Part shown: piece by piece, positions 9,285 through 25,385 of the stretch | Numbering within the stretch: the first letter of the stretch is position 1 | Layout: the number at the start of each line of letters is the position of its first letter | Assembly: GCA_000434395.1 (NCBI GenBank) | Contig: FR878755.1 | Span: 1 to 36,679, forward strand | Reading direction: 5' to 3' | DNA length: 36,679 bases | Origin: Clostridium sp. CAG:568 | GTDB taxonomy: Bacteria > Bacillota_I > Bacilli_A > RFN20 > CAG-288 | Notes under the pieces: model-generated | Database searches by the model: none | Seen by the model: the letters and a program-made list of their open reading frames with translations, nothing else | Told to the model about the DNA's origin: nothing | Translations under genes and position numbers: made by a program

Positions 9285-10169
9285 TTATTGCTCGATAATC
9301 TTTTTACAGAAGTTGATACAAGCTGCTAAGCCATTAGGGGTTGTGTTTTTGTCCACGAGAACTAATGGCTTTTTATATCCTATTAGAGCTATTCCACCAG
9401 AGACAATTTTTCTATCGATTGAATAATTGAACGAATTAATTACTCCTCTAATCATTGCTCCGCCGATTCTATATCCAATATTGGAATCAATTCCTTTTTT
9501 GATGTAATTGTTATAGATAGTAATTCCTTGATTGATTCCAGAGATTGTGGCTTGAATTAAATCAGGTCTTCCTAATAAAATATCAGCATCAGCTTCAAGG
9601 AATTTGTCTGTTGTTAATTCGCCATCGTATGAGTCATCTTCTTTGAAAAAATTAATTATTTCTTCATCCTCTTTTTTGATACTTAATTTATCTGCGATTA
9701 AATATTTAAATGTAGGGTCTTCAACTCCAAATTTTGAAGTGACAATAGGTTTTAATTGACTTAAATATGATTTCCAATCATCCAAACTTGGATTTGGATT
9801 AAATCCTAAGTCAGCAATAAATGTTTTCTTACCGGAATATGCATTTGCATAATTGGCAGTAAAGAATCCATTTTTTATTTCATTAGAAGGAATGCTTTTT
9901 TTAACTTCCTCATAATTTCTAAAGGCGACAATTCCATCTATTTTTTTGCTTTCATCTTTTAAAAGCTCTAGTGTTATATCTAAGGATGTTGACTCGCTTT
10001 TAATTATTTCTATCTTTTTATAATTTGTTAAAGTGAGTAGATTTTTAGGCTCACCAAATGCGAATAAACTATCATCTTTATTCTTCGACAAAAATATTTT
10101 TGTACCTTGTGCTAAGTTATCTATTTCCTCTTTTGAAATGTTAGAAAAATCTATAAGAATATTTGCCAT
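9285..10169 (-). CDS. hypothetical protein (294 aa), possibly EDD-fold/DegV-like
   Basis: Long ORF with the usual codon bias. Gly-rich C-terminal motifs (IGGAMIRG, SGGIALIGY) faintly resemble EDD-fold proteins. No confident family assignment. Confidence 0.5.
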   Translation of the reverse strand: MANILIDFSNISKEEIDNLAQGTKIFLSKNKDDSLFAFGEPKNLLTLTNYKKIEIIKSESTSLDITLELLKDESKKIDGIVAFRNYEEVKKSIPSNEIKNGFFTANYANAYSGKKTFIADLGFNPNPSLDDWKSYLSQLKPIVTSKFGVEDPTFKYLIADKLSIKKEDEEIINFFKEDDSYDGELTTDKFLEADADILLGRPDLIQATISGINQGITIYNNYIKKGIDSNIGYRIGGAMIRGVINSFNYSIDRKIVSGGIALIGYKKPLVLVDKNTTPNGLAACINFCKKIIEQ

Positions 10170-10291
10170 AATTTCTCCATGTTTTTAATTGCTTTTTTGT
10201 ATTAAAAACTACTCTATTATTTTAAACTTTTAAGCATTATATATATATGGTTTTGATATATAATATTTATTGCAAAGAAGTGAATAATAAT

Positions 10292-10897
10292 ATGAAAAAT
10301 AGTTATAAATTTTTATTCGGGTTTACATTAGCTTCTACTTTATTTTTATCTTCGTGTCAGCAAAATAACAAGCCTGATTATAACGTTGTAGTCGATTCTA
10401 ATCAGATTCACTTAAAAGTAACTTTGGATGACAGCTTTAAAAAAGAATATCAAAGTGGGGAGACTCTTAATCTCGACGGATTACATGCTTATTTTAATGA
10501 TCAAGAATTGAGCATTAATGAAACTTTTTATATAACTAACAGTCAATCTTTTCCTAAAGAATCAAAGATAGATTTAACTAAAGCGAAACTGACTACTGAC
10601 AATGCTGAAGCTACTAAATCATTCTTTGTTTATCACGAAGAAGACGATATTGTCTATGTCAGCGATTCAATTGTATTGCAAGTCAAGAATCCTAATGGTG
10701 GACATACTTGGATCTACTATACTGTCTTTGGTGTCGTGTTAGTTGTTTTAGCTCTTTGGCAAGGATTGAAAATTAAATCTAAAAACGATAAAGAAAAAGC
10801 TGATAAGGAAAATAAGAAAAAACATAAAAAGAATGAAGGAAATATAGAAGAAGTAAAAACTGACAAGACTCCTTCGGATTCAAACGAGAAAAAATAA
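10292..10897 (+). CDS. lipoprotein with C-terminal TM anchor and K/E-rich tail
   Basis: Internal ATG (MKNSYKF...) followed by signal peptide and lipobox LSS-C. C-terminal hydrophobic helix (IYYTVFGVVLVVLALW), then a charged tail. Confidence 0.55.
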   Translation: MKNSYKFLFGFTLASTLFLSSCQQNNKPDYNVVVDSNQIHLKVTLDDSFKKEYQSGETLNLDGLHAYFNDQELSINETFYITNSQSFPKESKIDLTKAKLTTDNAEATKSFFVYHEEDDIVYVSDSIVLQVKNPNGGHTWIYYTVFGVVLVVLALWQGLKIKSKNDKEKADKENKKKHKKNEGNIEEVKTDKTPSDSNEKK

Positions 10898-10938
10898 TTA
10901 CTGTTAGGATTTTGCTTTGTTATTTTATAATTTATTAA

Positions 10939-10961
10939 CTCAACTATTGGCTGATAGTTGA
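10939..10961 (+). terminator. hairpin (terminator or operator) upstream of the suf operon
   Basis: TCAACTAT-tggctg-ATAGTTGA inverted repeat followed by an A/T-rich stretch. Confidence 0.4.
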
Positions 10962-11031
10962 ATATTTATCATATTTATTGATAGATTATTGAAACATAAT
11001 TAAAATATATAAGCTTTGGAGGATTTTTTGC

Positions 11032-11853
11032 ATGGCATTTATTGAAATAAGAGGCCTTAAAGCTGAAGTTGATGGATTGGAGATTCTCCGCGGAATAGAC
11101 TTAGATATTGAAAAAGGTGATGTCTTTGGTCTATTAGGCCCTAATGGACATGGTAAATCCACACTTTTGACTTGTTTGATGGGTAATCCACATTATCAAA
11201 TAACAGAGGGATCTATTAGGATTGATGGAGAAGAAATCGTAGGAAAGACACCTGATGAGATTTCAAAGATGGGTGTTTTCTATTGCTTCCAAAATCCACC
11301 TGAGATTCAAGGCGTTGTATCGATGGATTTTTATAAAGCAGCTATCAACGCTCATAGAGAAAAGCCTATAGGTTTATTTGAATATTACAAATCATTGGAA
11401 CAGGCTTATAAGGATGTCGGTCTTCCTTCAGATATGAAAGAAAGACATCTTAATGATGGGTTCTCTGGTGGAGAAAAGAAACGTAATGAAATACTTCAAA
11501 TGCTTCTTTTGAAACCCAAGATTTGTATGCTTGATGAAATTGACTCCGGTCTTGATGTCGATGCTATTAAGACTGTAGGTGAGAACATAAATAAACTCGA
11601 AAAAGAAGGAACTACTTTCATTATTGTTTCTCATTACGCTAGATTGTTCGATGAGATAAATCCAACTAAATCAGCAGTTATTATAAATGGAAAAGTCGGA
11701 TTGACTGGTGGACCTGATTTAATAAAGAGAGTAGATACAGAAGGTTATACATTCTTGAAGAGTGAGTATGGAATCGATATAACTAAGACAGAAGAAAAAG
11801 CTCCAAATATGTTGGGCGAGTGTTTTGTCGCTAACGAGGCTAAGAATAAGTAA
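11032..11853 (+). CDS. sufC: Fe-S cluster assembly ATPase SufC
   Basis: Walker A GPNGHGKST, ABC signature FSGGEKKR, Walker B MLDEIDSG. About 270 aa, typical SufC length. First gene of a suf operon. Confidence 0.9.
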   Translation: MAFIEIRGLKAEVDGLEILRGIDLDIEKGDVFGLLGPNGHGKSTLLTCLMGNPHYQITEGSIRIDGEEIVGKTPDEISKMGVFYCFQNPPEIQGVVSMDFYKAAINAHREKPIGLFEYYKSLEQAYKDVGLPSDMKERHLNDGFSGGEKKRNEILQMLLLKPKICMLDEIDSGLDVDAIKTVGENINKLEKEGTTFIIVSHYARLFDEINPTKSAVIINGKVGLTGGPDLIKRVDTEGYTFLKSEYGIDITKTEEKAPNMLGECFVANEAKNK

Positions 11854-12548
11854 TGACTGGATTAAGAGATTATTATGAGCCTGACTGTGATGTCATAGAT
11901 TTGTCTTCTACTTTGAAAGAAGGAGAAGAAAAAATCATAGATATCGTCAATTTAAAAAGAAACAAGCCTTTAAAAATAATAGGAAAGATTATTTTGAAAG
12001 ATAGAGCTAAGTTGACAATTGTCGAAGTCGATTTCGCTAAGTTTGATGTCGATTTTCTTTTAGATGTAGAATGCATTGGATATAAGTCTGAATTCAGGTA
12101 TCATCTCTCTTCTTTGAATAGAGATGATGAAAAGAAGATATATAAAGCTAATGTCGTTCATAAAGGTAAGGAATCATTTTCTAGAACTTCGATGTTTGGA
12201 GTTTGTGAAGGCTCTTCTAAGATGCAGTTCTTAGGAGCTTCAGATATTAGAAAAGGAGCAGCTAAGACTAACACTCGTCAAGAAGCAAAGATTGTTAATT
12301 TATCTGGTAAAGCAAGATGTGTTGCTTCACCTGCACTTTTGATTTCGGAAGAGGATGTCTTTGCATCTCATGGAGCATCGATGGGATCAGTTCCAGATAA
12401 CGATATCTTTTATTTAATGTCTAGAGGAATAGATAGACCTACAGCTAATAAGTTGATCATGGTTGGATATTTGAAGCCTATCGCTTTGAAGATTAAAGAT
12501 GAGAAGATTAAAGAAGAAGCATTGGATTTGCTAGGGAAAGAAATATGA
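11853..12548 (+). CDS. sufD: Fe-S cluster assembly protein SufD (short form, 231 aa)
   Basis: SufB/SufD-family C-terminal beta-helix region, sitting between sufC and sufS. About half the length of a typical SufD. Confidence 0.7.
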   Translation: MTGLRDYYEPDCDVIDLSSTLKEGEEKIIDIVNLKRNKPLKIIGKIILKDRAKLTIVEVDFAKFDVDFLLDVECIGYKSEFRYHLSSLNRDDEKKIYKANVVHKGKESFSRTSMFGVCEGSSKMQFLGASDIRKGAAKTNTRQEAKIVNLSGKARCVASPALLISEEDVFASHGASMGSVPDNDIFYLMSRGIDRPTANKLIMVGYLKPIALKIKDEKIKEEALDLLGKEI

Positions 12549-13792
12549 CGAAGTCTATATCACAAGAAGAGATAGAGAAAATCAGAAATGATTTTCCTAT
12601 GCTAAGAAATGTTAAAGAGATGCAAAATCATAGATTTTGCTATCTCGATAATGGTGCTACAACATTTAAACCTGACTGTGTTATTAAAGCTAGCAACTCA
12701 TATTATGAAACTTGGAATGCTAATACACATCGCGGAGATTATGACATTGCTCATCTAGCTGACAAACGATATTGGCAAGCTAGAGAAAGAGTAGCCAAAT
12801 TCATAAATTCAAATCCTGAGGAAATTGTCTTTACTGCCGGAAATACAGAAGGAATGAATATCGTTGCATATGGAATTTGTTCTATATTAAGCCCTGGTGA
12901 TGAAATAGTTATTTCAACTGCTGAGCATGCATCGAATGTTTTGCCTTGGTTTAATTGGGCAAAGAATTTTAATTTGGTAGTCAAGTTTGCTCCTCTAGAC
13001 GAAGAGGGGAAAGTGACTGTCGATACATTAAAAACGGTTATGTCAGATAAGACCAAAGTGGTTTCGTTGGCTCATGTATCGAACGTTCTAGGAAATGTTA
13101 TCGACGCTAAAGCTATAGCTAAATTAGTCCATGATAATGGAGCTTATTTTGTTTTGGATGGTGCTCAATCCATACCTCACAAAAAAATAGATGTCAAAGA
13201 TTTAGACTGTGATGCATTAATCTTTTCTGGCCATAAAATGTTAGGACCTAATGGAATCGGTGTTTTATATGGAAAGAAGAAGTTGTTGAATTCTATTCCT
13301 CCTTTGCTTAGCGGTGGAGGGATGAACGCAACTTTTGATACTAAGTGCATGGTCAGTTATGAGGAAATTCCTTTTAAGTTTGAAGCAGGAACTCAAAATG
13401 TTCCTGGGGCTTGTGGTTTAGCTAAAGCTATGGATTATCTTGATTCTATTGGAATGGATAGAATAGATTCTTATGAATATGAATTGAAACAAATAGCATT
13501 GGACAAGCTTAAAGAAGCTAAGGATATAGAGATATATAATCCAAAATCCAAATCCGGAATTATAGACTTCAATAGAAGAGGAGTTTTCTCCCAGGATGAG
13601 GGAACTCTTTTGAATAGTCTTGGTATCTGTGTTAGAAGTGGATTCCATTGTGCAAAGATATTGACTGATTATCTTCCTAAAACTGGTACTGTCAGAGCTT
13701 CATTTTATATCTATAATAACGAAGCTGATGTCGATCAGTTCGTCGATAGTCTATTGAAAGGAGGAGATATATTAGATGCCTATTTCAATTGA
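12545..13792 (+). CDS. sufS: cysteine desulfurase SufS (PLP-dependent)
   Basis: Class II aminotransferase-like. PLP lysine in SGHKMLGP. Catalytic Cys region RSGFHCA. Confidence 0.9.
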   Translation: MTKSISQEEIEKIRNDFPMLRNVKEMQNHRFCYLDNGATTFKPDCVIKASNSYYETWNANTHRGDYDIAHLADKRYWQARERVAKFINSNPEEIVFTAGNTEGMNIVAYGICSILSPGDEIVISTAEHASNVLPWFNWAKNFNLVVKFAPLDEEGKVTVDTLKTVMSDKTKVVSLAHVSNVLGNVIDAKAIAKLVHDNGAYFVLDGAQSIPHKKIDVKDLDCDALIFSGHKMLGPNGIGVLYGKKKLLNSIPPLLSGGGMNATFDTKCMVSYEEIPFKFEAGTQNVPGACGLAKAMDYLDSIGMDRIDSYEYELKQIALDKLKEAKDIEIYNPKSKSGIIDFNRRGVFSQDEGTLLNSLGICVRSGFHCAKILTDYLPKTGTVRASFYIYNNEADVDQFVDSLLKGGDILDAYFN

Positions 13793-17551: not shown

Positions 17552-18514
17552 ATGACTCTATTTACTATAAAGAAAGCTTTTCATGAAATGAAAAACATGG
17601 GCCTTAAGAAGTTTCTTAAAACTTTTAAGTTCCAAGTCTCATATCACAATAAAAAGAAGAACAACAAATATTTGAAGAAGATTTATAAAGAGTATTATCC
17701 ATATGTATCAAAGACTTATGGCGGAAAGAATAGAGAATATCCATCTCTTACAAAAGAAGAAAAGAATATGTTCTTCTTTTGGTGGGATGGAATCGATAGT
17801 CTTCCAAATAAAGCTAAGAGAAACTTAGAAAGGATGAAAGAACTCTATGGAGATACTTTCAATATCGTTTTCATAGATAAGCATAATTTTAAAGAAATTT
17901 CTGGAATGAAGCAGATATTCATAGATGCATTTATGAAAAATCATATCTCCATACAAACATTTTCTGATATTCTTAGATTCAGTCTTATATATAAAAAAGG
18001 CGGAATATGGGTAGATTCGACGATATTTTTTACATCGAAGATAGATCTTGAATCGCAACTGGAGAAACAATCTATCTTATCTTTGGGAAATCAGGGGATG
18101 AAAGGCTGGTTCGAATTGAATGGTGAGCATTGCACTTGGAGCGATTTCTTTATAGGTGGAAGACGTAATTCTTTGATTTGTGAAGCCATGCTTGATTTAT
18201 ACGAGAAATATCTATCTAAACATAAAGATATTCTCATATACTTCTTAATCGATGATTTCTTGATGCTTTTGAAATTGGCTGATGTAGAGGATGGAGCTCT
18301 TAAAAGATTATCTATTTATGAATCTAGTCCATTCTATATAGCTGATCATTTTAAAGATGAGTTGTCTAAAAATAATCTGGATATGATTTATAGTGTTCCT
18401 CAAAAGATTGACAGACGTGAAAACTATGATAATGATAATCCTAATTCAATCTATAACTTAGTAGTTCTAAACGGATTGAGTTATGAGGATGCCAAAAAGC
18501 ATTGTTCTATGTAG
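17552..18514 (+). CDS. Caps_synth-like glycosyltransferase (capsular polysaccharide synthesis protein family)
   Basis: ATG after TAGGAGAAA. Motif FFFWWDGIDSLP, reminiscent of the WQFWWQG motif in capsule-synthesis glycosyltransferases. Confidence 0.55.
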   Translation: MTLFTIKKAFHEMKNMGLKKFLKTFKFQVSYHNKKKNNKYLKKIYKEYYPYVSKTYGGKNREYPSLTKEEKNMFFFWWDGIDSLPNKAKRNLERMKELYGDTFNIVFIDKHNFKEISGMKQIFIDAFMKNHISIQTFSDILRFSLIYKKGGIWVDSTIFFTSKIDLESQLEKQSILSLGNQGMKGWFELNGEHCTWSDFFIGGRRNSLICEAMLDLYEKYLSKHKDILIYFLIDDFLMLLKLADVEDGALKRLSIYESSPFYIADHFKDELSKNNLDMIYSVPQKIDRRENYDNDNPNSIYNLVVLNGLSYEDAKKHCSM

Positions 18515-18582: not shown

Positions 18583-18594
18583 ATCTTTTGCCTT

Positions 18595-18669
18595 TGGGAA
18601 TTAGCCAAGTGGTAAGGCTCTGGTCTCTGAAACCAGCATGCAGTGGTTCGAACCCACTATTCCCAGCCA
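18595..18669 (+). tRNA. tRNA-Gln (anticodon CUG)
   Basis: Acceptor TGGGAAT/ATTCCCA-G-CCA. 3-bp D-stem typical of tRNA-Gln. Anticodon arm CTGGT-CTCTGAA-ACCAG. T-arm AGTGG-TTCGAAC-CCACT. Confidence 0.8.
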
Positions 18670-18681
18670 ATAGATATCAAT

Positions 18682-18705
18682 TCCGGCGATTTGCCGGATT
18701 TTTAT
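18682..18705 (+). terminator. rho-independent terminator after tRNA-Gln
   Basis: TCCGGC-gattt-GCCGGA followed by TTTTTATTT. Confidence 0.6.
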
Positions 18706-18769
18706 TTATAAAATATGTTGAAAAGAGAAAGAGAAAGTTAAATAATTTTAGCTTGGTTAGGTGGTACAT

Positions 18770-20908
18770 ATGAATAGAAGCAAAATAATTGAATTATTGA
18801 ATATTCGTGATATGGATGAAGATGAATTGAGAGCTAAGTCGAATTGTTCTTTAGATGAGATTAAAAAATTCTTAAATATACTAGTTTTTGAAGGCCGGAT
18901 AATCAGACTTGGAGATGGTAAATATTCATTGACTGGATCTAGAATTGTTCTTTCATATGTTAAAAATAGATTTAAAGATTATGCTTACGTCACACCATTG
19001 AAGAAAGATATGCGTGATATAAGACTGGTAGGACAAGACGCAACTAAATTATTAAAAGGAGATTGTGTCTTTGTAAGAATTGATGATGATCTTTATGAGA
19101 ATAATGGTGAAGGTTCATTGATTCAAATAGTAAGACCGGTATCTTTTATTGAGGGCATTATATCTAAGGATGATGAAGGATTCTTTATCAATTCTTTTAA
19201 GAACATCGATAGTGAAGTTAGATTCGATGTCAAAAGGACATCTATAGAATTGATAGAAGGTCAATTAGTTAGGGCGGAAATAATTGATAGAAGAGATTAT
19301 ATATGTGATGTAGAAGTTACTAAAGTGATATCTAAGCCAGGCGATAGAATGTTCGATTTGATGAATGCTATAGTTGAAAAAGGCGGGACATTGACATACC
19401 CTAAAGATGTTGATGAACAAGCTATAAATTTAACTACCAACTTTACTGATACAGCTAAAGATAGACATGATTTAACCAATGAATTTATGGTGACCATAGA
19501 TGGTGCATCCACTAAAGATTTCGATGACGGACTATCTATAAGAAAGACTGATTATGGTTATGATGTGGGAGTTCATATTGCAGATGTTGCAAGTTACGTT
19601 AAAGAAGGAACTCCGTTGGACTATGAGGCTAGATTGAGAGCTACATCTATGTATTTCCCAGAGACTGAAATATCGATGTTACCAACGATTCTATCCGATG
19701 ATGTCTGCTCATTGAATCCAAATGTCGATAAATTGACTATAACATGTCTCTTACATTTAGACCATGATGGAATTTATAAATCTAGTGAAGTCTTTTTGTC
19801 TAAAGTCAAATCCAAAGCAAGACTCACTTATGATCAAGTCGACGAATATATAAAAGGAAAGGAAGATGAGTTTGATGGTGACCTTAAATATAATGTCGAC
19901 TTGTTGTTGGAATGCTCTAGAAAAATATTGAAGAGAAAAAAGGAAAAAGGCCAGCTTGTTTTTGGAAGAAACTATCCTGAATTCACATTAGATAAGGATG
20001 GAAATCCAGATACAGTTAAACCCAGACATGAATCTGAAGCTGAGAACTTAGTAGAAGTTTTTATGATTTTAGCTAATGATGAAGTCGGAAAGCTTTTAAA
20101 TGACAAAGCAGTTCCTGCTTTGTTTAGGACTGAGGATGCACCTAGGTTTGATGATATGTGTCTAATTAGAGATTTCTTAGATAGATTTGGAATAGATCCT
20201 GATTTATTTCCTAAGATTATTACATCTGAAAACTTAGCCAAATACTTTGAATCGATTCCTAAATGGGCTGAAGTAATAGGAAAGTTATGTACATTAAAGA
20301 TGATGAATCCTGTAGTCTATAGTAGATCGCCTGGACTTCATTTTGGATTGAATTGTAATCATTATGTTTATTTCACTTCTCCTATAAGAAGATATCCAGA
20401 CCTTTTAACTCACAGATTGCTTCACGATTTCTTATTAGACAATAATGATGAAGCGGATAGAAAAGCAGTAGGAGATTATTTAGATAATCTCCCTGACTTA
20501 TTATCGCAAGAAGAAAAACTTGCTAAGCAAATCATGAATAATGCTCATGATATGGAATGTGAAAGATTCATGTCTTCAAGAATGTATGACGTTATGGAAG
20601 GCGAAGTTAGAAACTTCATAGGATCGGGAATTAAAGTTTCTTTAACTAATGGAATAACTGGTCTGTTGCCATATGATCATATCGATAATGATTATTATAA
20701 GAATCAAAGAATGTGTTTTTCAGTTTATGGTAGAAACACTGAAAGAGAAATAGTGTTGGGTGATGTGTTGAAAGTAGCTGTTGTAGATATAATTCCAGAT
20801 ACTCATACTTTGATATTAGGTACAGAAGAATATTTAGATGAATCTGGTGATGATATCGACGAAAACACACTCCAAAATATGAAGAAAAACGGAGTTGTTA
20901 TTAGATAA
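18770..20908 (+). CDS. rnr: ribonuclease R (RNB family 3'-5' exoribonuclease)
   Basis: RNB catalytic motif HFGLNCNHYVYFTSPIRRYPDLLTHR. N-terminal winged-helix/cold-shock region and a C-terminal S1-like region. ATG at 18770 after AGGTGG. Confidence 0.9.
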   Translation: MNRSKIIELLNIRDMDEDELRAKSNCSLDEIKKFLNILVFEGRIIRLGDGKYSLTGSRIVLSYVKNRFKDYAYVTPLKKDMRDIRLVGQDATKLLKGDCVFVRIDDDLYENNGEGSLIQIVRPVSFIEGIISKDDEGFFINSFKNIDSEVRFDVKRTSIELIEGQLVRAEIIDRRDYICDVEVTKVISKPGDRMFDLMNAIVEKGGTLTYPKDVDEQAINLTTNFTDTAKDRHDLTNEFMVTIDGASTKDFDDGLSIRKTDYGYDVGVHIADVASYVKEGTPLDYEARLRATSMYFPETEISMLPTILSDDVCSLNPNVDKLTITCLLHLDHDGIYKSSEVFLSKVKSKARLTYDQVDEYIKGKEDEFDGDLKYNVDLLLECSRKILKRKKEKGQLVFGRNYPEFTLDKDGNPDTVKPRHESEAENLVEVFMILANDEVGKLLNDKAVPALFRTEDAPRFDDMCLIRDFLDRFGIDPDLFPKIITSENLAKYFESIPKWAEVIGKLCTLKMMNPVVYSRSPGLHFGLNCNHYVYFTSPIRRYPDLLTHRLLHDFLLDNNDEADRKAVGDYLDNLPDLLSQEEKLAKQIMNNAHDMECERFMSSRMYDVMEGEVRNFIGSGIKVSLTNGITGLLPYDHIDNDYYKNQRMCFSVYGRNTEREIVLGDVLKVAVVDIIPDTHTLILGTEEYLDESGDDIDENTLQNMKKNGVVIR

Positions 20909-20922
20909 ATAATAAGAAGTTG

Positions 20923-22815
20923 TTAATTCAATAATTCTTTTATTTTCCTTTTTATATAAAACCTTAAAGGTTCATCCATAATATACAAATAAGTTCCTTT
21001 TTGACCTCTGGTCATCAAGACTTTATATGTGTTTCTAATAAGTCTGTCTATTATTATTTTATCATTAGGATCTATCCTTTGTTTGTGAGGTCTTTTAAAT
21101 TCTCCAGATTTCTCTGGATGCTTTGTATAGTCGGTTTGTATTAGGCCATCCCTATAAATGAAATCATCACCGATGATTAATCCGACATAATCAAAATCCA
21201 TTCCCTGAGATGTATGGATACATCCTACTTCATCGATTGATGTGGGATCGACTGCAAATTTTTTATCTTTATTCCAAATGGCGTGAAAATCGCCTATGTT
21301 TATATCTTTCTCATCGTCGGACAAATCGCTTAATTTGCTTTTTGGCATTCCCATTGTTTTCCAAGGGAAAACATCGCCTGATAACATCCTAGAATGCTTG
21401 TTTCCTGTTTTGTTCTTTTCAATTATGACATCTCGCATTTTGCATAAGTCATCGAAAACTTTAATGTCGTAATCAACCTTCTCACCAGATTTAATAAAAG
21501 GCTTGTTGTATAGAATGGATTCTAGCCAAGCTATGTATTCATCGCTGCCGTTGCATCTGAATTGAGACCTTAAGGTGTATTTAGAATTGTCATCTACAAT
21601 TGCGTGTTCGGCTTTTGCAGCTGCTTTAATATTTTCGATTGTTCCATAATCCTTGATGTCGATGCTTTGATTCTCATCGATGAAAAAAACACTGTTCTTA
21701 GCTGCGTGAATAATCTCTTGGATTTGATTGTTTCCATAGAACATATATGACTGTTTTGTTTGCTTAGTGAGACGATGGGCCTCGTCGACTATTAAACAAT
21801 CAAATTCGTTGAGATTTGAATCATTATAGAATTGACCTGATCCTAAAAACAAAGATCTTAACTTCTGATAATCTGGAATATCTTTCGTTAATTTCTTTTC
21901 ATATGCTTCTTTTATATAGCTTGACTTAGCTACATAGAATGTATTTATTCCTTTGTTCACAAAGGCAGATAATAATTGCAATGAAATTAATGTTTTTCCA
22001 GTTCCCATTCCACCTTTTACTATGTATACATGTTTATAAGGTGATGATAAGTTGGCTATTATATTTTTATATAGGTTTGAATATACGATTCTTTGATCAT
22101 CAATTAATTCGAATTCTTTATTTCCCTCAAGGATTTTAGCTAATGAATCCGATAAATTCTTTGAAGGCTTTATCTTTCCATCAGAGATTTCAAAGAGGAT
22201 ATTATTTTTTGATGGCTTTTTGATATATTTTCCAACAAACTCTGCCAACTTAAAATAATCGTTCATTATATAAGGATATGCTTTTTCAATTCCTTCTTTA
22301 TAAATAGGATTATCTAATTCTTCTTTATAACATTCTCTATAGTTATGTAAAAAAGCACATGCATGAATCTCAACATTATTTTGCTCTACAAATTCATTAA
22401 AGTTTGATATTGTCGATTTGTACGAATATGCTTGCCATGATGGATGTACTTCTTCTGTGTTTCGACCATAATAATCAACGGTTACAATATCGGGCATATC
22501 AGTATGCTTTACTTTTTCCCATTGTTTTAGTTCGACAATTATTGCATGATCTTTATTTTTATCATCGGCACCAGCTATGATGAAATCTATTCTTTTACAA
22601 GTTAATGGGATTCTCATCTCTAGAGCTACTTCTGCATCTAATGGAATGTCTTGGTTGAATTTTAATGCCGTAGCAATTGCGGGTAAAGAATTATGAAATG
22701 CTCGCAATTGACTTGGACCAAAGTTCATATTTGTTTGAGCTTTAATTTTATTTTCGATTTGATCACTATCAATATCCTCATAGAATCCTTTTAGCGTTGA
22801 ACTATATGTTCTCAT
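20923..22815 (-). CDS. PD-(D/E)xK nuclease / SF1-like P-loop ATPase fusion (DUF2075/Schlafen-type helicase-like); candidate defence protein
   Basis: N-terminal D...ExK motif (RIDFIIAG...AIIVELKQW). Walker A GGMGTGKT, Walker B DCLIVDEAHRL. SF1 motif VI-like IHTSQGMDFDYVGLIIG. 630 aa. Convergent with rnr. Confidence 0.7.
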   Translation of the reverse strand: MRTYSSTLKGFYEDIDSDQIENKIKAQTNMNFGPSQLRAFHNSLPAIATALKFNQDIPLDAEVALEMRIPLTCKRIDFIIAGADDKNKDHAIIVELKQWEKVKHTDMPDIVTVDYYGRNTEEVHPSWQAYSYKSTISNFNEFVEQNNVEIHACAFLHNYRECYKEELDNPIYKEGIEKAYPYIMNDYFKLAEFVGKYIKKPSKNNILFEISDGKIKPSKNLSDSLAKILEGNKEFELIDDQRIVYSNLYKNIIANLSSPYKHVYIVKGGMGTGKTLISLQLLSAFVNKGINTFYVAKSSYIKEAYEKKLTKDIPDYQKLRSLFLGSGQFYNDSNLNEFDCLIVDEAHRLTKQTKQSYMFYGNNQIQEIIHAAKNSVFFIDENQSIDIKDYGTIENIKAAAKAEHAIVDDNSKYTLRSQFRCNGSDEYIAWLESILYNKPFIKSGEKVDYDIKVFDDLCKMRDVIIEKNKTGNKHSRMLSGDVFPWKTMGMPKSKLSDLSDDEKDINIGDFHAIWNKDKKFAVDPTSIDEVGCIHTSQGMDFDYVGLIIGDDFIYRDGLIQTDYTKHPEKSGEFKRPHKQRIDPNDKIIIDRLIRNTYKVLMTRGQKGTYLYIMDEPLRFYIKRKIKELLN

Positions 22816-22933
22816 ATTTCTTTAGCTCCTTTGTGAATAATATTACGTCTTTTCTCAATCATCAAAACTGGTAATTATTATTTAGTCTATAAAACGAATG
22901 TTTTTCTTTGTTAAAATACATCTGGTGATATAA

Positions 22934-23338
22934 ATGAGAAAAGATAGAATTGATCTTTGCTTAGTTGATATGCAGGGAAGATTATTTGAAAATTCAAGAA
23001 AATATAATTTTGATAGTGAGATTTTTATTGAAGTTTTTATGAATTCTGATATAGCTAAAGATTTGGACTCTAAAATAAGTATTAAAAAACTAGCAAATGA
23101 TAAGATAATCATGAAGAAATTCTTGGAAAGTAGTAAAAAGAAGCTAAGCACTATAGGGAATAGTTTTGATGAAGAAATCTTATATTGGATCGGTTATGTA
23201 TATAGATATTGGAATATTTTAACTGGTGAATCTAGCAAAGATATTTATAAGAAAGCTCCAGTAAGACTTATGGAAGAAAAATATGATGAATATCATCTTG
23301 TGGATATAGAAGACGTAATTGACATTTTAAGAAAGTAA
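22934..23338 (+). CDS. hypothetical protein (134 aa), divergent from the nuclease-ATPase gene
   Basis: ORF with coding-like composition. No recognisable motifs. Confidence 0.45.
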   Translation: MRKDRIDLCLVDMQGRLFENSRKYNFDSEIFIEVFMNSDIAKDLDSKISIKKLANDKIIMKKFLESSKKKLSTIGNSFDEEILYWIGYVYRYWNILTGESSKDIYKKAPVRLMEEKYDEYHLVDIEDVIDILRK

Positions 23339-23586
23339 TATTTTTGTGATGATTAGAGCAACTATAAAATCCACTGTTTTATCAAATTCAAAAATTAATT
23401 ATTTATTGTATCTAAGACTTGTTTATGTCTGATATGTTGTGTGTCCATAATCTGTTTAAGTTTATGGATACGTAAAAAAAAGGAGATAAAACTCAATATT
23501 TTGAGTATTATGCGTTTTGATAGTTCTAAACATTCGATTTTGTGGTATAAAAAGTAGCAAATTTTCATAATAAAGGTGGTAATAGC

Positions 23587-24138
23587 ATGTGTACAGAGGA
23601 TATTATTCAATTTGAAATAGATAAATTCTTGGAAAAGAAAGAAATTAGTGTTCCCAAAAAGAAGAATGATTTCATTGATTATAGAAGTGAAGATTCAACG
23701 CAAGGCGTCCCACCTCATTTATGTGTCAGATTTTCAACCCCTGAAATCGATGCAATAAATAAGAATTATCCTGCTCAAGATAAAAAGGTTATTGGAAAGT
23801 TTAGATTTAGATATTTCTGTCTTTTCGAGCTTTACACATTTGATACACATGACGAGCAGTCCCATGAAGGATACACGATAGATTTAACCTTCCCTATTCC
23901 TGATGAGGATGATGCATTAACACCTATTAGAACTGAAGCATTTAATAGGATTAAAAAAGTATTCGTTGATAGACCCTGGGCAAGACCATATAGTGGAGCA
24001 AATTGGCATCATCTTAGAGTATTCGAAGTTTCAGAGAAATCGATGAAAGAAGATCCTAGAGGTTTCGAAGTAGCCTTAAGAGAATTCTTGGATAAAGGAA
24101 TCCAAACAGCAATCGATTTGTCAAAGAAGTTAAATTGA
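23587..24138 (+). CDS. hypothetical protein (183 aa)
   Basis: RBS AAAGGTGG before the ATG. Extended -10 (TGTGGTATAAA) upstream. Followed by a strong terminator. No family recognised. Confidence 0.5.
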   Translation: MCTEDIIQFEIDKFLEKKEISVPKKKNDFIDYRSEDSTQGVPPHLCVRFSTPEIDAINKNYPAQDKKVIGKFRFRYFCLFELYTFDTHDEQSHEGYTIDLTFPIPDEDDALTPIRTEAFNRIKKVFVDRPWARPYSGANWHHLRVFEVSEKSMKEDPRGFEVALREFLDKGIQTAIDLSKKLN

Positions 24139-24144
24139 TTAGAC

Positions 24145-24172
24145 AAGACCTTCTGGGGAAGGTCTTTTTCTT
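24145..24172 (+). terminator. rho-independent terminator
   Basis: AAGACCTTC-tggg-GAAGGTCTT followed by TTTTCTTT. Confidence 0.7.
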
Positions 24173-24266: not shown

Positions 24267-25385
24267 ATGAATAACGATGCCGATATAAAGATGAGTTGGT
24301 TGGATAGGAAAAAAGAAGAATACAAGGAAGACTTTAAGCAAACATTTTTAAGTTTACCTCCTAAGAAAGTTGCGATGAACTTGATTCTGATATTTTTAGG
24401 AAGTGTATTGCTAGCTTTTGCAACATCATTCTTTCTAATTCCCGGAAATATTGTTATGGGTGGAAATTCAGGAATAGCTTTGACTATTATGGAAATAATA
24501 AAGAGATCGACAAACAATAACTATCCGTCTTGGATAGATACTGATTTTATTATTCTATTGTTGACTATTTTCTTTTTTATTTTAGCCTTTATCCTATTAG
24601 GATTTTCATCTTTGATCAAGAATAGTATTTCAGCTATTACTTATCCATCTTTTGTCTTTATATTTACAGCTATTAGAAATGTCGAATCATTTCATTATTT
24701 GAGAATAGAAGAATATATGTCTTCATATCCTAATCCTGTTATAGGAAGTGGATATGATCTTTTAGCTGTAAGCATTGTTGCAGCAGTATTTGGCGGTGTT
24801 TTTATGGGATTGGCAACTTCTTTAGCCTTTAAAGGAGGTGGAAGTGCTGGTGGAACTACGTGTCTCGTGGTTTATTTTAGTAAACACACAAAGATGAAGG
24901 CTCATACTGTTTCGATTATCATCGATATAATCATAATTGCAGCCGGTATGTTTGCTTACATGGATATCATCACTTCTTTGATAGGCATAATGTCTGCTGT
25001 TATATGCTCTCAAATCATAGCGAAGGTGTTTGTCGGTGGATCACAAGTATTGCATGCAGAAATCATATCTTCTCATTGGGAAAACATATCTCATGCTATT
25101 CATACTAAGATGAGAAGAGGAACTACTATTTATACAGCACAAGGTGGATATACAGGTGTTGAAAGGAAAGTTGTATATGCATCTTTCACTAAAGAAGAGT
25201 ATCAAGATTTCTTAAAGATTGTAAACGACGAAGATCCATCAGCTTTTATCACTATCACTAATGTTTATGATGTTTCTGGTGGTTATGGATTTGCTAAGAA
25301 ACGAAATAAAAATATTAAAGAAGAGCCAAAGCTTCTTGATACTAAAGAGAAAATAGAAGAAAATAAAGATGATAAGAAAGAGTGA
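24267..25385 (+). CDS. YitT-family membrane protein (DUF161 + DUF2179)
   Basis: Multiple TM helices, then a C-terminal DUF2179-like segment (GGYTGVERKVVYASFTKEEYQDFLKIVNDEDPSAFITITNVYDVSGG). Confidence 0.8.
   Translation: MNNDADIKMSWLDRKKEEYKEDFKQTFLSLPPKKVAMNLILIFLGSVLLAFATSFFLIPGNIVMGGNSGIALTIMEIIKRSTNNNYPSWIDTDFIILLLTIFFFILAFILLGFSSLIKNSISAITYPSFVFIFTAIRNVESFHYLRIEEYMSSYPNPVIGSGYDLLAVSIVAAVFGGVFMGLATSLAFKGGGSAGGTTCLVVYFSKHTKMKAHTVSIIIDIIIIAAGMFAYMDIITSLIGIMSAVICSQIIAKVFVGGSQVLHAEIISSHWENISHAIHTKMRRGTTIYTAQGGYTGVERKVVYASFTKEEYQDFLKIVNDEDPSAFITITNVYDVSGGYGFAKKRNKNIKEEPKLLDTKEKIEENKDDKKE

Follow-up and report, generated by a model that had tools for sequence, protein, structure and literature searches.

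In this work we analysed a 36,679-nucleotide stretch of Clostridium sp. CAG:568 (contig FR878755.1 of assembly GCA_000434395.1, positions 1 to 36,679 of the forward strand; hereafter the window), and in it the gene for a 630-amino-acid (aa) protein, H630, which lies on the minus strand just after rnr, the gene for RNase R. Judged from its sequence and distribution, H630 is probably a self-contained, horizontally acquired anti-phage or anti-plasmid gene of the nuclease–helicase kind represented by Nhi, Nhi-like and AbiO. This reading is supported by the exchange of H630 for a Type ISP restriction–modification (RM) gene at the same chromosomal slot, by the patchy spread of its relatives and the restriction enzymes found beside them, and by a remote homology to Nhi-like. 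A first-pass annotation of the window, made from the letters alone, had proposed a single-protein nuclease–helicase antiviral gene at this place, and this core of its proposal agrees with the architecture of the protein, with the homology to Nhi-like and with the cassette that alternates with Type ISP. Coordinates are collected in Table 1.

A predicted nuclease fused to an SF1B helicase

H630 is composed of two halves. The C-terminal half matches Pfam PF09848 (DUF2075, now SLFN-g3_helicase) over profile positions 1–354 of 354, with 278.1 bits for a cut-off of 24 (E = 1.5e-82), which is far beyond chance. The P-loop ATPase, the Walker A motif, the DEAH motif and the block resembling motif VI of superfamily 1 (SF1) that the first-pass annotation had listed could all be placed by translation, as could a QFRC motif. 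Walker A, Walker B, a TxHxxQG motif, a C-terminal arginine motif and a two-RecA-domain fold together identify this half as a helicase of the SF1B group. The AlphaFold model of the full-length protein (predicted local distance difference test, pLDDT, 84.7; predicted template-modelling score, pTM, 0.83) was compared with the PDB by Foldseek, and the best matches were Dna2, the Dda-like DSH9, nsp13, Upf1, SLFN14, RecD2 and Dda, the top ones with E values of 5e-9 to 2e-6 and TM-scores of only about 0.3. Single-sequence and profile searches of the PDB sequences with the whole of H630 returned either nothing or RecA, matched spuriously at Walker A, so that by these searches no relative of H630 has a solved structure; a search of PHROGs gave a generic helicase match only.

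The N-terminal half contains a restriction-endonuclease-like alpha/beta core with a D...(D/E)xK signature, as in the PD-(D/E)xK superfamily, and a helical linker that carries a conserved KPS motif (aa 216–218). No Pfam family matches the first 260 residues. This includes NERD, which had been suggested for the N-terminus; the PADLOC models for Hna and Nhi gave no match to H630 either. The fusion of a D...ExK nuclease motif with a complete ATPase is upheld by profile, by fold and by the conservation of the catalytic residues. In an alignment of 81 proteins (H630 and relatives from 80 other species, 37–55% identity), the residues E66, P70, R75, D77, E95, K97, W99, H124, P125, Q128 and H157 of the nuclease half and K274, D344, E345, H347, R348, R420, G531, H534, Q537 and G538 of the helicase half are invariant (81/81), and R603 is conserved in 80 of the 81, the remaining row being gapped. 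E66, D77, E95 and K97 are likewise invariant in a separate alignment of 44 sequences. Given this invariance across the family, both active sites are under strong purifying selection. Among H630 alleles of the same species the ratio of non-synonymous to synonymous substitution rates (dN/dS) is 0.09–0.24 in most comparisons.

A strain-variable slot after rnr

A metagenome scan with RNase R found 20 contigs in human-gut assemblies that belong to the same species, with flanks 98–99% identical in nucleotide sequence to the window. Eighteen of them extend past rnr, and 17 could be classified, the other one ending too soon. In blastn comparisons of the 18 contigs homology always ends at the end of rnr, at window position 20908. 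Beyond this point five contigs carry H630, four a Type ISP gene (one of them split), two the remnants of such a gene and six a deletion (Table 1, with the unclassified one). Three more contigs, found in a separate look-up (L001–L003), have H630 followed by O134 and O183, two small genes of 134 and 183 aa that are discussed below. In one of the H630 alleles (L089:10166-12055, minus strand) codon 127, in the nuclease domain, is changed from TGG to TAG (W127stop), the rest of the gene being intact.

The gene that takes the place of H630 matches the Pfam families Mrr_cat_2, ResIII, Helicase_C, ISP_coupler (1e-32), N6_Mtase and Type_ISP_C (1e-90), and the PADLOC model REase_MTase_IIG with 1,558 bits. 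On this domain content it is identified as a Type ISP RM enzyme, with Mrr nuclease, helicase, coupler, N6-methyltransferase and specificity domain. In the empty alleles about 80 bp from the 3' end of the Type ISP gene are still present, and an AAGGA microhomology marks the point where they meet the sequence that precedes O183; because this piece of the RM gene remains, these alleles arose from the RM allele by deletion. Where H630 is present, even the final codons of rnr are different (715 instead of 714 aa) and the right breakpoint is near position 22846. H630 is therefore a single-gene cassette (about 20909–22845) that replaced the RM enzyme by recombination in the flanks. The site thus has the properties of a defence hotspot, as its content varies between close strains and as it holds a known defence system in some of them. 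That H630 shares one fixed position with a restriction enzyme as the alternative occupant, and is occasionally inactivated, indicates that it behaves as defence cargo. The tRNA-Gln gene upstream of rnr was considered as an integration site and rejected, since the end of rnr, where the variable segment starts, is 2.2 kb away from it and the locus has no integrase.

A large family with a patchy distribution

Homologues of H630 form more than 6,400 full-length clusters. The N-terminal domain alone, used as a query, retrieves 1,265 clusters at 50% identity, and it always stands at the N-terminus, in proteins of mostly 615–660 aa. A scan with one genome per species gave more than 414 relatives; locus counts in this work refer to the best 80, all full-length. 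These 80 belong to Bacillota, Bacteroidota, Acidobacteriota, Pseudomonadota, Desulfobacterota, Spirochaetota, Actinomycetota, Saccharibacteria, Elusimicrobiota, Lentisphaerota and Kiritimatiellia, and include methanogenic archaea. The full-length relatives form a large clade of their own, with 37–63% identity to H630. Members are also found in 28 plasmid records, archaeal plasmids included, and in Microcystis phage Mwe-JY31, where their annotation does not go beyond 'DUF2075 domain-containing protein' or 'hypothetical protein', and two close relatives of H630 (P0060 and P0070) occupy unrelated contexts.

The neighbours of the family are repeatedly of the restriction type. SauUSI-like enzymes with PLD, helicase and DUF3427 domains form a homology cluster over nine family loci and small NUDIX hydrolases a cluster over seven (one member of each was checked against Pfam). 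McrBC-like pairs are present in four to five loci and HNH_2 proteins in six, and Mrr_cat, Mokosh, PbeA, PDC-S05/S07, NERD, Fic and AbiEii proteins are also encountered. A survey of 2019 had already noted DUF2075 NTPases beside modification-dependent enzymes with DUF3427 (PMC6765204).

The presence of relatives on plasmids and in phage genomes raises another possibility, namely that H630 serves a mobile element, in the replication or transfer of a plasmid or integrative and conjugative element or as a weapon against competing elements, and that the chromosomal copy is a stranded remnant. One close relative indeed lies beside an HTH_17 excisionase-like gene and many small open reading frames (ORFs), which suggests that its locus (L117) is a mobile element, and another adjoins a gene for an FtsK/SpoIIIE-type ATPase. 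However, no integrase, relaxase or replication gene is found near the copy in the window, which is a single-gene cassette exchanged with an RM enzyme through flanking sequence; most plasmid matches are on large, non-mobilizable replicons, and the recurrent neighbours are restriction-type rather than transfer genes. We consider this explanation improbable, and competition between elements would in practice require the same biochemical activity as defence.

Some family loci differ from the common arrangement. In the L117 locus, whose family member is 57% identical to H630, a 130-aa ORF (9920-10312, plus strand) overlaps the stop of the helicase gene by 4 bp; it has no Pfam match. In a Lachnospiraceae locus (L005) the family member is preceded by the FtsK/SpoIIIE-type gene and directly followed by a 713-aa DUF2075 paralogue (10120-12258, plus strand; SLFN-g3_helicase, 7.5e-66). 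The same N-terminal nuclease is also carried by a longer subclass, P0154, P0158, P0166, P0171, P0175, P0191, P0277 and P0278 (785–817 aa), and by P0212 (1,068 aa); their excess of 150–440 aa over the usual 615–660 aa implies extra C-terminal domains.

A MazG-like partner in much of the family

In 44 of the 80 family loci, or 44 of the 74 whose upstream side is covered, the helicase gene has an immediate neighbour on the same strand that encodes about 105 aa. It is mostly just upstream, with a 4-bp overlap with the helicase start in at least eight loci, and is downstream in three. Its product is a MazG-like all-alpha NTP pyrophosphohydrolase (Pfam PF12643, 1.4e-20), for which PADLOC has no model. 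This enzyme is the real recurrent partner of the H630 family. Our literature searches did not turn up the helicase–MazG pairing as a described system; MazG is among the unvalidated predicted defence domains of DefensePredictor.

A search for a MazG-like gene in the window found none. The copy studied here might therefore be a decaying or crippled system that has lost the partner of most of its family, and the nonsense allele that circulates in the species would fit such a decay. Yet the H630 ORF is intact with all its motifs, the low dN/dS values given above indicate constraint, and the closest relatives examined (51–57% identity: L004–L006 and the contexts of P0060 and P0070) are all devoid of MazG while keeping every invariant residue. 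This last observation suggests that a MazG-independent subfamily is stable and that H630 belongs to that branch, so that we regard a crippled copy as very improbable.

Possible mode of action and weight of the evidence

If H630 is a defence gene, its helicase would load on invading DNA and translocate with ATP, and the attached nuclease would nick and degrade this DNA, so that its replication is stopped; the coupling of an SF1B motor to N-terminal cleavage would parallel Nhi. Neither a methyltransferase nor an immunity gene accompanies H630, and discrimination between self and non-self must therefore lie in the substrate. The most likely substrate is phage DNA that carries methylation or hypermodification, or else an intermediate of phage replication. 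Of these two the modified DNA is favoured, because phages escape Nhi-like through loss of a methylase and because modification-dependent enzymes and MazG or NUDIX proteins are neighbours of the family. The alternative target would be replication intermediates, as proposed for Nhi. The phage may be cleared directly, which is the outcome with Nhi, or the infection may be aborted, which is the outcome with AbiO; O134 and O183 take no part.

A more specific scenario would make the H630 family a distinct class of ATP-driven, modification-dependent (type IV-like) restriction enzymes, ancestrally associated with a MazG-like (sometimes NUDIX) pyrophosphatase that destroys the modified deoxynucleoside triphosphates of phages. 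The copy in the window would be a MazG-independent derivative that displaced the Type ISP enzyme, the two never co-occurring since methylation by Type ISP would turn the host DNA into a target. We consider this scenario unlikely as a whole.

Several observations weigh against a role of H630 in defence, or against the mechanism just outlined. The natural W127stop allele means that the gene is dispensable, and some relatives are found among housekeeping genes. Validated proteins are only remotely homologous to H630 (22% identity to Nhi-like within its first 399 aa, 63 columns with Nhi); the PADLOC model for Nhi does not match H630, and those for AbiO and PDC-S41 match it weakly and in part. A MazG-like gene accompanies over half of the family while H630 is solo, and without this partner the solo form could be impaired or work differently. 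Finally, the favoured idea of modified DNA as a substrate comes from gene association and from one distant relative.

The opposite view, that H630 is a housekeeping nuclease–helicase of the lineage acting in DNA repair or replication (Dna2-, RecD- or AddA-like), could invoke Dna2, which ranks first in the structural comparison of the full-length protein, and the position among the core genes gidA, rnr and yitT, and is nevertheless most improbable: 12 of the 17 classifiable conspecific contigs and the related species examined are devoid of H630; the NCBIfam models for recD and recG give 18 bits (cut-off 310) and 14–16 bits (cut-offs 659–995); the family is scattered patchily over phyla and archaea, plasmids and phage included; a nonsense allele exists in nature; and H630 is the only minus-strand ORF of at least 150 aa in a 20-kb run of plus-strand genes, with a local inversion of the GC skew across it. 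The first-pass annotation had itself named a RecD- or PcrA-type orthologue conserved at this position, or variable D...ExK residues, as findings that would speak against its proposal, and it had asked whether rnr and yitT are adjacent elsewhere; there is no equivalog match of the RecD/PcrA type, H630 is not conserved at this position, and the D...ExK residues are invariant.

The alternation of a DUF2075 nuclease–helicase and a Type ISP enzyme as occupants of one slot in one human-gut species amounts to a clean natural experiment, and provides direct population-level evidence of H630 as defence cargo. The MazG-like partner and the SauUSI-like, McrBC-like and NUDIX neighbours lead to a testable hypothesis, action on modified phage DNA or nucleotides. 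The allele swap with Type ISP in the population and the family-wide coupling to MazG are the two points most worth following.

The two small genes and the rest of the locus

The three ORFs of 630, 134 and 183 aa described by the first-pass annotation are present between rnr and yitT, a gene for a YitT/DUF2179 membrane protein. H630, said to be wedged between these two, does lie in that interval, although the gene directly upstream of yitT is O183. The small ORFs had been proposed as partners or regulators of H630. The idea that the three genes make up a single multi-component system, in which the small proteins would regulate, sense or confer immunity, might draw on the divergent arrangement of O134 and H630 around a shared 118-bp intergenic region, on the fact that the O134 family is component B of a PADLOC candidate system, and on the adjacency of the three genes in seven conspecific contigs. 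The distribution of O134 and O183 leaves it hardly any credit. Neither gene is beside any of the 80 relatives from other species, and tblastn searches of these 80 loci with O134, O183, rnr and yitT found nothing outside the same species.

Both small genes had been described as devoid of recognisable domains. This does not hold for O134, which matches PADLOC PDC-M42B (1.6e-11) and weakly Pfam DUF3791, both assignments being confirmed by its homologues. O134 is found beside either cargo, H630 or the unrelated Type ISP gene; neither the empty alleles nor L098, in which the helicase gene is intact, have it. Elsewhere, its homologues directly follow a 285-aa gene with HTH_3 and DUF3990 domains that matches PDC-M42A, and this protein, not a helicase, is their usual partner; in one case a homologue follows a small helix–turn–helix gene in a HicB/Abi_2 island (contexts L104:6108-7426, L107:1078-2393 and L109:6619-7414). 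As PDC-M42 consists of adjacent components A and B, and as a search for the DUF3990 gene found none in the window or in any conspecific locus, O134 is, on sequence grounds, an orphan DUF3791-type B component, a neighbour and not a partner of the helicase.

For O183 the description stands, as no family library searched gave a match. Its homologues form seven clusters only, from a handful of related species (55–64% identity). The metagenome scan for rnr relatives had given the same species only, and synteny in sister species was taken from these homologues: the order is always upp, O183, yitT, in a neighbourhood free of the helicase (L112:9001-9552, L114:9001-9561, L116:9001-9576). Within the species O183 is present in every contig that reaches that far, including the six with an empty slot. 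From this conservation O183 is assigned as a lineage-specific core gene tied to yitT. The boundary of the locus is corrected accordingly, the two small ORFs not being parts of the system.

The terminator that had been predicted for O183 corresponds to a terminator-like hairpin. A promoter scan of the locus gave 19 sites, compared with 22 expected by chance. Two further ORFs are probably not genes: one of 61 aa (18588-18773) over the tRNA-Gln gene is a spurious translation, and one of 89 aa (22882-23151) is antisense inside the O134 gene. A second strain-variable segment (17571-18337) lies inside a Caps_synth glycosyltransferase gene (17552-18514): several conspecific contigs have no homology over most of this gene, and in one conspecific assembly its product is 280 aa instead of 320 aa.

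Table 1. Features of the H630 locus, alleles of the slot and examples of family neighbours (window positions, unless a contig is named)
Feature	Position or contig	Strand	Remarks
H630, 630-aa nuclease–helicase gene	20923-22815	minus	ORF; sole component of the proposed defence function
N-terminal domain, aa 1-258	22042-22815	minus	PD-(D/E)xK core (about aa 60-160) and helical linker
Predicted nuclease active site	22525-22620	minus	E66 22618-22620; D77 22585-22587; E95-L-K97 22525-22533
SF1B helicase domain, aa 261-614	20974-22035	minus	DUF2075/Schlafen group 3 type; Pfam PF09848
Walker A GGMGTGKT, aa 268-275	21991-22014	minus	By translation
Walker B DEAH, aa 344-347	21775-21786	minus	By translation
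SF1 motif IHTSQG, aa 533-538	21202-21219	minus	By translation
SF1 motif YKVLMTRGQKG, aa 597-607	20995-21027	minus	By translation
Slot interval	20909-22845		Replaced in conspecifics by a 4.9-kb Type ISP RM gene or its remnants, or deleted; blastn breakpoints 20908 and 22846-22932
Second variable module	22846-23479	plus	Holds O134
O134, 134-aa ORF	22934-23338	plus	ORF
O183, 183-aa ORF	23587-24138	plus	ORF
Terminator-like hairpin	24145-24166		3' of O183
yitT, YitT/DUF2179 membrane-protein gene	24267-25385	plus	Profile match
rnr (RNase R)	18761-20908	plus	Pfam RNB 9e-90
tRNA-Gln(CTG) gene	18595-18669	plus	Just upstream of rnr
Allele H630, O134, O183	L084, L085, L089, L100		As in the window
Allele H630, O183	L098		O134 absent; helicase gene intact
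Allele with a 1,626-1,633-aa gene in place of H630	L092, L094, L086	minus	Followed by O134 and O183 in L092 and L094; the L086 contig stops before them
Type ISP RM gene of L092	L092:10157-15037	minus	
Allele with split Type ISP gene, 827 + 800 aa	L101:12553-15036 and 10157-12559		Followed by O134 and O183
Allele with decayed Type ISP fragments	L096:10887-11204; L091:10949-11272		O134 full in L096, partial in L091
Empty allele	L087, L088, L093, L095, L097, L099		Only 200-400 bp before O183
Unclassified	L090		Contig too short past rnr
MazG-like gene of relatives	L012:7654-7971		Also in L014, L034, L046, L065
Restriction-type or NUDIX neighbours of relatives	L022:4467-7589 and L022:7602-7976; L042:3106-7127; L035:6619-7614		

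Comparison with known systems

Single-protein nuclease–helicase defences (AbiO, Nhi and Nhi-like) are already known, so that the kind itself is not new. The first-pass annotation had placed H630 with Nhi- or Hna-like proteins and with Schlafen-type helicases. The resemblance to Nhi-like and the Schlafen type of the helicase are confirmed; the PADLOC model for Hna, the Sinorhizobium helicase–nuclease, does not match H630 at E ≤ 1.

The closest validated protein is Nhi-like of Bacillus cereus FSL H8-0482 (system SG141), a standalone protein with proven anti-phage activity (Millman et al. 2022, bioRxiv 10.1101/2022.05.11.491447), which phages escape by loss of a phage DNA methylase. Both unite a nuclease, at the N-terminus, and a DUF2075 helicase in a single protein of about 610–630 aa. 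When the profile of the H630 family was compared by hhalign with the first 399 aa of Nhi-like, the probability was 96.5% (E = 9e-10, 270 columns, 22% identity), and the nuclease E..R.D and ExK motifs, the KPS linker, Walker A and Walker B were in register. The homology thus covers the stretch between the nuclease and Walker B, both included; the last 212 aa of Nhi-like lay outside the comparison. The two differ in that the H630 family often has a MazG-like partner, whereas Nhi-like is described as standalone.

Nhi itself (SERP2475 of Staphylococcus epidermidis RP62a; Bari et al. 2022, bioRxiv 10.1101/776245) needs both its nuclease and its helicase activities, blocks the accumulation of phage DNA and has 302 homologues in three phyla. 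It combines, as H630 does, a PD-(D/E)xK nuclease (D72/E85 in Nhi, D77/E95 in H630) and a DUF2075 SF1B helicase in one protein, and the SF1B neighbours that Foldseek finds for H630 are those reported for Nhi. Horizontal spread, occurrence on plasmids and in phages, and defence neighbours are common to Nhi and the H630 family. In sequence, the relationship is barely detectable (hhalign probability 83%, 63 columns). The PADLOC model for Nhi does not match H630 at E ≤ 1, and relatives of H630 match it at the helicase core only (1e-10 to 1e-15), which leaves H630 outside Nhi by sequence. The H630 family is also the larger one; its clusters number in the thousands and come from many phyla, archaea included.

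AbiO is an abortive-infection protein from a Lactococcus lactis plasmid, made of an N-terminal PD-(D/E)xK domain and an SF1B SLFN_3-like helicase; its phenotype is abortive and it is toxic at high copy (PMC13064643). The PADLOC model for AbiO matches H630 with 7.7e-12 and 42.7 bits over aa 234–467, the N-terminal half of the helicase, and covers positions 176–369 of a shorter profile (468 positions), so that the match is not full-length. PDC-S41, a single-gene PADLOC candidate that is itself unvalidated, has a profile of about 657 positions; it matches H630 with 1.7e-10 and relatives of H630 in their N- and C-terminal parts, up to 3e-18. Its scores of 38–63 bits, compared with about 650–880 bits within the H630 family, indicate a sister family and not the same one. 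Taken together, PDC-S41, Nhi and AbiO match other family members with 1e-10 to 3e-18.

Two further groups share parts of this architecture. The eukaryotic group III Schlafens (SLFN5/11/13/14) have a helicase of the same Pfam family, and SLFN14 is among the best structural matches, but H630 lacks the Schlafen (AlbA_2-type) RNase domain, has a PD-(D/E)xK fold at its N-terminus instead and is therefore no group III Schlafen; the papers on bacterial Schlafen defence concern the RNase domain, not a helicase of the H630 type. Dna2 has the same domain order as H630, a PD-(D/E)xK nuclease and then an SF1B helicase.

In conclusion, these sequence comparisons place the H630 family as a sister family within the nuclease–DUF2075 class, outside the Nhi and AbiO families as currently modelled. 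As this very large family is annotated only as DUF2075 and is missed by the PADLOC model for Nhi, defence catalogues probably undercount the class to which H630, Nhi-like, Nhi and AbiO belong.

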